This document shows, one piece after another, positions 32,897-39,740 of a stretch of DNA of 58,123 nucleotides. The notes beneath the pieces are model-generated. The model worked only from the letters and a program-made list of their open reading frames with translations. It searched no databases and was not told where the DNA came from. A program made the translations under genes and the position numbers. The DNA comes from Christensenellales bacterium (GTDB lineage Bacteria; Bacillota; Clostridia; Christensenellales; CAG-917), in NCBI GenBank assembly GCA_051883555.1, contig JBJETY010000028.1, forward strand, positions 1-58,123, read 5' to 3'. Every line of letters begins with the position of its first letter. The first letter of the stretch is position 1.

Positions 32897-32931
32897 GCGG
32901 TTAAAAGCAAAAAAAGCGACAAAAAAAGTGC

Positions 32932-32960
32932 TTGCTATAAACAGTAAATTATGCTAATAT
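32932..32960 (+). promoter_or_regulatory. SigA-type promoter of the SRP RNA
   Basis: TTGCTA, 17 bp, TG-n-TAATAT; the predicted RNA 5' end follows after 6 nt. Confidence 0.8.
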
Positions 32961-32966
32961 TATATA

Positions 32967-33233
32967 GCCGTGCTAGACGGGGAGCTAGCGGTGCCCTGTA
33001 AACCGCAATCCGCTACAGCGGTGTTGAATGTCGATTGAGGTGCAAGCTATGGGAGGCTGCACCGTGCAAGGGGTGTTGATAGCAAGGTCTTGTGCAACGT
33101 TATGCTGTGAACCGTGTCAGAGCTTGACCGCAGCAGCACTAAGCAGATTTTAGCGTGTGCCACAAGGAAGCTTTGAAGGAGCTACCTACACGGTTACCGC
33201 TTCGGTAGTTGGTATCGAGAGAGGCTGCACGGT
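32967..33233 (+). ncRNA. ffs: Large (Bacillus-type, Alu-containing) signal recognition particle RNA
   Basis: 5' GCCGTGCTAGACGGGGAGCTAGCGGTGCCCTGTAAACCGCAATCCGCT matches the B. subtilis scRNA Alu domain; helix 8 TGAACCGTGTCAG...AGCAGCA; 3' GCACGGT pairs with 5' GCCGTGC; own promoter and terminator. Confidence 0.93.
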
Positions 33234-33269
33234 AAAACAAAAGGCATCTTATCGGATGCCTTTTGTTTT
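33234..33269 (+). terminator. Intrinsic terminator of the SRP RNA
   Basis: AAAACAAAAGGCATC-TTATCG-GATGCCTTTTGTTTT. Confidence 0.88.
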
Positions 33270-33668
33270 GTGTTTTTTTGTTATAACAACTACTCTTCGT
33301 TTTGCGTTTTACGCCGACTCTTCTTTTTGCATTTTACAACTTCTCTTCGTTTTGCTTTTCATAAACACTATTTTGTCATAGAGTCGATTTACGTTTCGTT
33401 TCCCGTCATAAAACAACTGCACATTTTATTTTTTGCTTTTGCGTCTACTCTGCGTTGCGTTTTTATATTTTACAACAACCGCCGATTTTTTATATCATAA
33501 AACCACCGCTTGTCCGTATTTAGCATAAAATATCCACTGTTTGTTTGGTTTCATATTATTTGTTCTGAATTTTGCGTTTTATTTAAACTACCGCGCACAA
33601 TAAAGCGTTACTTTTTTGCAATTAGACCGCTTATTCGGTACACTTTTTATAGCGTAACAAGCTTAAAT

Positions 33669-33998
33669 TTAATTTGATTTTTTAATATTCTTTTGAGTAT
33701 CTAATATCCCTTGTATATAGCTTTTAGCAAGTTTTTTGTTCCCCTCATCCAACTGGTCGTATAGTTCTTGTATCTCTGTTTTAGGAATATATGAATTTTC
33801 TAACAAACTATCCGACGTTCTTCCTAAAATATAATCTGTTGTAACGTTAAAAAAATCGGCAAGTTTACAAAGCATTTCGGGTGTTGGTTTGTGTGTGTTT
33901 GTTTCATAGCCGGAATACGTTGCATAAGAAATTCCTAGTTTTTCCGCTACGTCAATTTGCTTTATTTTTTTTGATTGTCTGATTTCTTTAAGTCTCAT
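33669..33998 (-). CDS. XRE-family (HTH_3) repressor, ImmR/cI-like, predicted leaderless
   Basis: LKEIRQSKKIKQIDVAEKLGISYATYSGYETNTHKPTPEMLCKLADFFNVTTDYILG; no S24 peptidase domain; ATG 33998 lies 6 nt after a -10. Confidence 0.88.
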   Translation of the reverse strand: MRLKEIRQSKKIKQIDVAEKLGISYATYSGYETNTHKPTPEMLCKLADFFNVTTDYILGRTSDSLLENSYIPKTEIQELYDQLDEGNKKLAKSYIQGILDTQKNIKKSN

Positions 33999-34004
33999 AT
34001 TTCG

Positions 34005-34106
34005 ATTATTAATTTTTTTTGGCAATTTTTCAAGATTTTCTAAATTTTCTATTGACTTTTAGAGTTATTCTAAGTATATTATGATTGTTTAGAGAATCTC
34101 TAAACA
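34005..34106. promoter_or_regulatory. Divergent promoters with three operators at 30-bp spacing
   Basis: TTCAAGATTTTCTAA (34029), TTAGAGTTATTCTAA (34059), TTAGAGAATCTCTAA (34089, inside perfect palindrome 34086-34106); rightward TTGACT-17-TATATT (34052-34080); leftward TTGAAA-17-AATAAT (34033-34005). Confidence 0.78.
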
Positions 34107-34137
34107 CAACGTAACAAAATAAGGAGAAAAAAAAAGC

Positions 34138-34560
34138 ATGGCAAACGAAAAACAAACTTACAAATTACTTTTGAAAACAAACCGCAGTTTAATTAAGTAC
34201 ATTTTACTTTCAATTATCACCTTAGGTATCTATTCAATCTACACTTATTATACCATTGGCGAAGACATTAATATGATTGCTAGCGGATACGACGGTAAAA
34301 AGACAATGAATTACGCGTTATTGTTTTTCCTCATTGGTCCTATTACGTTCGGTATCGGAATTTTGGTATGGATGCACAGAATCTGCAAACGCATAGGTTG
34401 TGAACTCGAACGCCGTCAGATACCATACAGCTTCGGCGCAGGCAGTTACTGGGGATGGCACGTACTCGGCGTTGCAATTATTGTCGGACCTTCAGTATTT
34501 ATTCACAAATTATGCAAAGCAATGAACTTACTTTGCAATGACTATAATGTAAACGACTAA
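34138..34560 (+). CDS. DUF4234-like membrane protein
   Basis: RSLIKYILLSIITLGIYSIY N-terminal motif, 3 hydrophobic segments, AAGGAG RBS. Confidence 0.7.
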   Translation: MANEKQTYKLLLKTNRSLIKYILLSIITLGIYSIYTYYTIGEDINMIASGYDGKKTMNYALLFFLIGPITFGIGILVWMHRICKRIGCELERRQIPYSFGAGSYWGWHVLGVAIIVGPSVFIHKLCKAMNLLCNDYNVND

Positions 34561-34606
34561 TTTTGCAAACGACTAATTCAAGAAATTAGATTTAACCTAA
34601 ACGTTG

Positions 34607-34638
34607 ATAAAGCACTCATAAAGAGTGCTTTATTTTTT
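34607..34638 (+). terminator. Intrinsic terminator
   Basis: ATAAAGCACTC-ATAAA-GAGTGCTTTAT followed by T run. Confidence 0.8.
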
Positions 34639-34774
34639 GCTTTTCTTAATCATGCTATCCATAGACTTAAAAATTTTGTTTTAGCCATAGATAAAAATCA
34701 CAAAATTAAATCTTAAGGTTAAAAATATATGACAATAGCATAACGCCGATTCACAGAATTAAGGAGAATATTTG

Positions 34775-38692: not shown

Positions 38693-39562
38693 TTATCTTG
38701 CATTCCATTTCACGGTTCCGTCTTTTTCAAGCTGTCCCCACTTACCGTCCTTTTTGACCTTTGCCGAGCCGTCTTCAAAAGGCGTAGCCGCGTCGAACTG
38801 AAAATCTACGATAAGTTTATTATTTTTATCTACGTATCCGCATTTACCGTTTTTTACTACCATGGCAAAACCTTCGGAAAAGCTTAATCCCGCTTCATAA
38901 TCGAACGGTATCACCATATTATTGTTTGAATCGATATAACCGCATTTTTCATCGAGTTCGACGAGTGCAAGTCCTTCCTTAAAGGAAAAAACTTCGTCGT
39001 ATACGGGAGGAATGACGTTTTTTATTCCGTCATAAAATCCCCATTTCGTACCGCGCTGAACCTTGCGCCACTCTTCAGGCGGATACGGCGGTTTAAGCTG
39101 TTTGACTTCTTCAACGCCATAATGCGGACGTCCCTCGCCCTGCCTGAGTTTTCCGCTCAAAGTGAAAAATTTACGGTTCGGCAATTTTTCTTCAACTTTT
39201 TCCTGCTTTACAGGTTGAGCGTTTTGTTTAGCCGCTTTATCGTTTGTCTGTTGTTGCGTTTCATGGACTTTTGGTTGGTCGTTTCTTGTCGCAAAAACAA
39301 AGCCCTTTTTGCGTAAACACTTTGAAATTTCAATAAACTGCTTTTTGCCGAACATTTGAATTTTATACATATCCTTTTCGGTCTTTTTGACCAAATCGGA
39401 AGCGGTTTTTAAATTATTATCGAGCAAAAGCTTTAACGTGTTTTCTGAAAGCCCCAATTGTTCGAGCGGAACTTTTCTGGCGGCTTCTTCCATTTTTGCG
39501 TCGTATACGTTTGTTACTTGTGCTTTTTCGCTCTTTTTATAGTAAAATTTCTTTTTAGCCAT
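38693..39562 (-). CDS. RNA polymerase alpha-CTD-like domain plus C-terminal WG repeats
   Basis: aa 32-90 align gaplessly with the alpha-CTD; C-terminal repeats WGFYD/CGYID/CGYVD/WGQLE with F-EG spacers; GGAG RBS before ATG 39562. Confidence 0.75.
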   Translation of the reverse strand: MAKKKFYYKKSEKAQVTNVYDAKMEEAARKVPLEQLGLSENTLKLLLDNNLKTASDLVKKTEKDMYKIQMFGKKQFIEISKCLRKKGFVFATRNDQPKVHETQQQTNDKAAKQNAQPVKQEKVEEKLPNRKFFTLSGKLRQGEGRPHYGVEEVKQLKPPYPPEEWRKVQRGTKWGFYDGIKNVIPPVYDEVFSFKEGLALVELDEKCGYIDSNNNMVIPFDYEAGLSFSEGFAMVVKNGKCGYVDKNNKLIVDFQFDAATPFEDGSAKVKKDGKWGQLEKDGTVKWNAR

Positions 39563-39740
39563 ATTAACTCCTTTTTTAATTATATCAAAAAGGTTTAAAT
39601 ATAGCAATAATTTAAACCAATTTAAAACCGTACAACTCATTTAAAAACATACAACTCACAATTTGACTTCTTCTCTTACGACTTATCTCAAACTTAATAC
39701 ACAGTGCGTCGCAAAGTATTTATTCTTTAAATCTCGGTTG

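Follow-up and report, generated by a model that had tools for sequence, protein, structure and literature searches.

The closest described systems to the RNA studied here are the large bacterial SRP RNAs of the Bacillus scRNA type (Rfam family RF01854, Bacteria_large_SRP), whose consensus combines an Alu domain with a pseudoknot, a helix 5 and a helix 8 that ends in a C-GGAA-G apex and has a G at position 49 (E. coli 4.5S numbering). In the symmetric loop of helix 8, an A-C pair and the adjacent G are invariant (PMC4605306), and FtsY is tethered electrostatically to the apical loop via its residue K399 (PMC4091067). Besides GNRA, the URRC sequence has been described as "another widespread alternative loop" of bacterial SRP RNA (Rosenblad et al., PMC4091067), and plastid SRP RNAs exhibit enlarged, non-GNRA apices, with loops of 1-11 nt and an FtsY in which K399 is often lost (PMC4091067, PMC5115805). 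UNAC loops are known to mimic GNRA through a trans sugar/Hoogsteen pair between U and C (PMC5311481), and the CUAACC hexaloop of phi21 boxB, in its N-peptide-bound form, forms a GNRA-like motif with a flanking cWW C-C pair (PMC12550061, PDB 1NYB).

The window analysed here is the whole 58,123-nt stretch of DNA from a Christensenellales bacterium (GCA_051883555.1, contig JBJETY010000028.1, positions 1 to 58,123, forward strand). It contains an SRP RNA gene (Table 1) that cmscan matched to RF01854 with 174 bits (E 1.2e-28) over model positions 1-256 of 256, for a gathering threshold of 60 bits. This confirms the Alu-containing large SRP RNA recognised in a previous sequence-only reading of this DNA and shows it to be full-length; the fear that its unusual tip could cause missed annotation is not borne out for this gene, which scores 114 bits above the cut-off. 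It is the only SRP RNA gene of a genome that is 96% complete, and its product shares with the Bacillus type the Alu domain, helix 5 and A47-G48/C62 of helix 8. Helices 3 and 4, the UGU turn and the loop-loop pseudoknot, by which Alu domains are recognised, are all present. Among 33 distinct sequences of the family, the Rfam structure is 80.8% paired and 51 of its 98 pairs show compensatory changes, against 18-24 for controls with slid partners; the 5-bp Alu loop-loop pseudoknot is 100% paired in the same sequences, with 3 compensatory pairs. The whole-molecule MFE z-score of the source RNA, at -0.70, is uninformative. The probable promoter, a weak one, consists of TTGCTA (32932-32937), a 17-nt spacer and a TG-extended TAATAT (32955-32960), with a predicted +1 at about 32967; it has 8 of 12 matches to the consensus, which is under the threshold of the promoter scan, so that it is absent from the scan list. 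Identity with the congeners begins upstream at 32911-32922. Sequence and covariation show that the Alu domain and the symmetric and asymmetric Ffh-binding loops of the RNA are intact, and the gene is the ordinary, single large SRP RNA gene of this organism, probably a functional one. An SRP RNA of a known family with a published loop type is not a pointer to a new system.

Table 1. Features of the SRP RNA gene and of its surroundings (positions in the window)
Feature	Position	Strand	Remarks
Probable sigma-A promoter	32932..32960	+	Read and inferred by eye
Large bacterial SRP RNA gene (ffs/scr), single copy	32967..33233	+	RF01854 match 32968-33232
Alu domain (helices 3 and 4, UGUAA turn 32997-33001, loop-loop pseudoknot)	32968..33026	+	Rfam alignment
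Helix 8 / domain IV, Ffh M-domain site	33110..33142	+	Asymmetric loop AACC; symmetric loop C46-A47-G48-A49 opposite A60-G61-C62-A63
G49-to-A substitution	33121..33121	+	A.A replaces sheared G.A pair
Apex, 2-bp stem G50-C59 + C51-G58 capped by U-UGAC-C (YURRYC hexaloop)	33122..33131	+	
Intrinsic terminator hairpin and T run	33232..33271	+	18-pair stem, 4-nt loop, T tail; abuts the 3' end
XRE/Cro-type HTH gene	33669-34025	-	
DUF4234 membrane-protein gene	34138-34560	+	

The gene indeed lies outside the tadA-ffs-dnaX context, since the tadA-like and dnaX-like genes of the source genome, identified by motif, are on other contigs (C52 and C72). This position is not unusual: among 17 relatives that belong to other families of the order, only one has dnaX adjoining the SRP gene, no tadA motif was found in the ORFs nearest to the SRP gene in these 17, and SRP genes of this order have as a rule lost dnaX as a neighbour. 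The usual neighbours in the family are pyridoxal-kinase-like, ileS-like and ABC permease-like genes. From the SRP terminator to the pyridoxal-kinase-like gene (33270-34770) there are about 1.5 kb in the source, versus about 360 nt in the congener G005, and the additional DNA, with its HTH and DUF4234 genes, looks like the remnant of a mobile element. No att-site duplicate of the 3' end of the SRP gene, an idea taken from PMC12540744, was found in the source genome. Elsewhere in the window, a 315-aa ORF (38693-39640, minus strand) combines an RNA polymerase alpha C-terminal-like domain (PF03118, E 1e-9) with three WG repeats (PF14903), which is an odd domain pairing.

Helix 8 has the length of the canonical helix and reads CAG-A-GC-U-UGAC-C-GC-AGCAGC, with C46 at 33118, A49 at 33121, U52 at 33124, the loop U53-G54-A55-C56 at 33125-33128, C57 at 33129 and A63 at 33135; the remaining bases are A47, G48, G50, C51, G58, C59, A60, G61 and C62. 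Sequence, length, A49 and the choice between a URRC loop and a hexaloop with a U-C mismatch were all correctly given in the first reading. Where the RF01854 consensus has C-GGAA-G and G49, the source RNA has U-UGAC-C and A49. The apex is thus not a GNRA tetraloop with its canonical closing pair; UGAC conforms to both U-R-R-C and U-N-A-C, and U52.C57 is a mismatch, so that the loop, with no Watson-Crick or G-U pair at its base, is not a true tetraloop. UGAC occupies the same position as in other URRC-loop SRP RNAs, from which the source differs by this mismatch, which shortens the stem to 2 bp and widens the loop to 6 nt. At 50-59, a G-C pair replaces the canonical U-A, a compensated change. 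Both stem pairs are maintained among the 33 distinct family sequences (50-59 is GC in 30 and AU in 3, 51-58 is CG in 33 of 33), whereas the closing position 52-57 is unpaired in 32 of the 33. Loop length and U53-G54-A55 do not vary in 34 family members. The predicted hairpin energy is -4.4 kcal/mol for U-UGAC-C, versus -7.5 for C-UGAC-G and -8.4 for C-GGAA-G.

The substitution at position 49 had been read as part of an altered Ffh-binding stem. The evidence speaks against an alteration that needs compensation: A47, G48 and C62, i.e., the invariant A-C pair and adjacent G of the symmetric loop, are present in the source RNA and invariant in the family alignment, and G49A is a common polymorphism. 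A49 occurs in 18 of 35 family members, scattered on an FtsY tree that is weakly resolved at depth, in 16 of 116 genomes of the order, in 29 of 120 broken-apex matches among those listed (see below) and, always with a GNRA loop, in 13 of about 140 other clostridia (~9%) among the matches listed. It would be an exchange of one purine for another that the symmetric loop tolerates at a position that is not invariant.

The tip itself is a known alternative to GNRA that a large part of the order has inherited. All five other genomes of the genus have an identical helix 8, the loop is UGAC or UGAU in 35 of 35 family members, with a broken closing position (U.C or C.C) in 34, and in a hand tally of 116 genomes of the order (probably Christensenellales) 62 carry URRC (53%), 50 GNRA and 4 GNRG. 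The URRC loop was presented as notable for a clostridial SRP RNA; this stands for Clostridia outside the order, where it is rare (3 of about 140 among the matches listed), but not within the order, where it is ordinary and where its frequency is precisely the outcome that the sequence-only reading had named as speaking against it. Its remark that URRC variants are known from other bacteria agrees with the published record. Regalia et al. are said to have reported in 2002 a UGAC loop in Lactococcus and Staphylococcus. Among the 62 URRC genomes of the order, the loop is closed by C-G in 33, the commonest form (C-UGAC-G), by U-G in 13 and is broken in 16; paired and broken states are found side by side in families f100 and f101. 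Some relatives in these samples deviate in other parts of the RNA. Four genomes of family f26 without a pattern match nevertheless have an SRP RNA; in the three of these that were read (L365, L366 and L369; genomes of 0.8-1.0 Mb), C-UGAC-G is followed by AGCAUC in place of AGCAGC, which breaks the U45-G64 pair beside the symmetric loop. Four order relatives (L055-L058, from G039, G050, G044 and G055) reach only 75-89 bits over 167-235 nt with the large SRP model, so that some SRP RNAs of the order may be shortened or lack the Alu domain.

A scan for the pattern Y-URRY-C, with one genome per species, gave at least 120 broken-apex matches. In each of the 120 matches listed, the two stem positions that the pattern leaves free are paired, which marks them as genuine helix-8 motifs. 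Planctomycetota contribute about 80 of these matches and clostridia about 22; Mollicutes account for 8, and archaea and other phyla for a few. Five of eight broken-apex loci tested pass the Rfam SRP gathering scores, and hexaloop loci of a pacearchaeon (L127), a planctomycete (L134) and an archaeon (L102) fall short of them. In hand tallies, in which kin are not independent, the closing pair is broken in 16 of 62 U-starting versus 0 of 54 G-starting loops in the order sample, 7 of 23 versus 0 of 28 in Planctomycetota (leaving out one odd G-UGAA-A apex) and 14 of 16 versus 0 of 61 in Mollicutes. A search of the whole metagenome collection for the converse arrangement, GNRA with a pyrimidine on either side, gave 44 matches; this collection differs from that of the broken-apex scan, so that the two counts form no ratio. 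Only 4 of the 44 are SRP RNAs, and such RNAs therefore exist and are very rare. U-starting tips, unlike GNRA, often lose their closing pair, and this has occurred independently in several lineages outside the family (Planctomycetota, Acholeplasmatales, some archaea).

Further variants were seen in some of these lineages. Acholeplasmatales-like apices extend beyond URRC to U-UGAG-U, U-UGAU-U, U-UGAA-C and G-UGAA-A (G434, G456, G473, G495, G519 and others), and only U53-G54-A55 is constant among them in the Mollicutes sample. A U-UGAU-C tip is present in Pacearchaeota, Woesearchaeota and a Methanosarcinales archaeon (L077, L127, L128, L102, L093). Archaeal SRP RNA normally has an A as its fourth loop base, which is paired with helix 6 (PMC4605306); in these tips, this tertiary contact must therefore be changed or lost.

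We consider it likely, by analogy with the loops described above, that the shape of U-UGAC-C remains GNRA-like, with the two pyrimidines below the loop paired, and that this tip tethers an unchanged FtsY. U53 and C56 would form a trans sugar/Hoogsteen pair, by which the backbone stays GNRA-like (U_SH-turn) while the two purines between them stack, and U52.C57 would form a pyrimidine-pyrimidine pair comparable to that of the boxB hexaloop. Such a tip would present to FtsY nearly the same phosphate surface as GNRA, and the basic helix of FtsY could bind to it with no change in the protein. This proposal builds on the mimicry of GNRA by UNAC loops, on the fold of boxB, on the presence of CUAACC itself in planctomycete SRP RNAs (7 of 80 among the matches listed) and on the K399 tether. 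The source shares with the UNAC/UMAC mimics and with boxB the U-N-A-C core and the pyrimidine-pyrimidine flanking position; the second loop position is A in boxB (UAAC) and G in the source (UGAC), and boxB serves here as no more than a structural analogy. The ffh and ftsY genes of the source genome are both on contig C12, without stops and over the NCBIfam cut-offs, and FtsY has K399, R402 and R406. K399 is a Lys in 66 of 66 proteins from genomes with GNRA, paired URRY or broken URRY loops, and positions 399, 402 and 406 are basic whatever the loop type. We infer that the closing pair would have drifted first from C-G to U-G and then to U.C or C.C in the family and, independently, elsewhere; all of these states are observed.

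Alternatively, the tip might have partly lost its catalytic role under relaxed selection, as in plastids, with a floppy hexaloop, a weak FtsY tether and slower targeting that is tolerated. The predicted hairpin stability, 3-4 kcal/mol below that of the C-UGAC-G and canonical C-GGAA-G versions, would fit such a decay, as would the small genomes of several hexaloop lineages (the family of the source, f1, with about 1.5 Mb, Acholeplasmatales and DPANN archaea), but the same hexaloop is present in planctomycete genomes of 4-7 Mb. The tips of Acholeplasmatales wander further (UGAG, UGAA, UGAU with U.U), and in moss an enlarged apical loop cuts the affinity for cpSRP54 6- to 11-fold (PMC5115805); the source clade differs from plastids, with which it shares an enlarged non-GNRA apex, in that loop length, U-G-A and K399 are all conserved, K399 being never lost. 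Ffh R398 is relaxed to Q or H in 17 of 34 broken-loop relatives, yet the Ffh of planctomycetes and Acholeplasma retains it. Some loss of function in RNAs with a broken closing pair is possible, and we regard decay as an unlikely explanation of the tip.

It seems to us still more improbable that Ffh or FtsY acquired compensating changes in step with those of the RNA, producing a lineage-specific recognition code. The source Ffh (C12:8277-9545, L061) has the RNA-binding motif SQRKRIAKGSG, in which the usually conserved R398 is replaced by Gln, and non-Arg residues at this position are concentrated in the source clade, Arg being found in 12 of 13 G-loop relatives. Q, H or E at position 398 is common in the family and in the neighbouring families f13, f17, f19 and f23, and R401 is kept in 56 of 56 proteins. 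In E. coli, the structure has R398 in contact with the asymmetric loop, not with G49 or the apex. We considered R398Q as a partner of G49A or of the hexaloop and rejected it: A49 RNAs co-occur with R398 (6), Q (10) or H (1) and G49 RNAs with Q, H or E (11), so that there is no tracking, and Arg is kept in 10 of 10 hexaloop lineages outside the family. No compensation was found in FtsY at 399, 402 and 406 across loop types. The changes in Ffh and FtsY that had been suggested as a check thus appear to be absent at the known contact residues of both proteins. A sequencing error or a pseudogene has practically no probability left, as nothing beyond the departure from consensus speaks for it and the only SRP RNA gene of this 96% complete genome has a helix 8 that is identical in the six genomes of the genus, the five congeners refuting a read error, and of a type found family-wide.

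The sole new point is that URRY tips often lose their closing pair. In the searchable literature, a scope that leaves key reviews and SRPDB outside, we found neither a description of a U.C-closed 6-nt SRP apex nor the coupling between U-starting loops and closing-pair loss; the coupling may already be known, because genomes of planctomycetes and of Acholeplasma have been accessible for a long time. We tentatively propose, as a possibility that we rate somewhat below even, that these apices form a third, undescribed class in prokaryotic SRP RNA, a YURNYY hexaloop on a 2-bp stem that would have arisen repeatedly and only from U-starting loops, whose fold, unlike that of GNRA, would need no Watson-Crick closing pair. 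The class would include Christensenellales-like clostridia, Planctomycetota, Acholeplasmatales, and DPANN and Methanosarcinales archaea.

It seems that the tip on which FtsY docks, in an RNA that is universally conserved, can adopt either of two folds under different constraints: the closing pair is nearly always retained in GNRA and has repeatedly been lost in URRY. For SRP search patterns that require a paired tetraloop, this is a small refinement. The natural apex variants are constructs with which the transient-tether model, which predicts that shape and charge are read and not sequence, can be tested and, if the third-class reading is true, these variants together with an unchanged FtsY K399 would probe whether it is the backbone shape or the sequence of the tip that is read.
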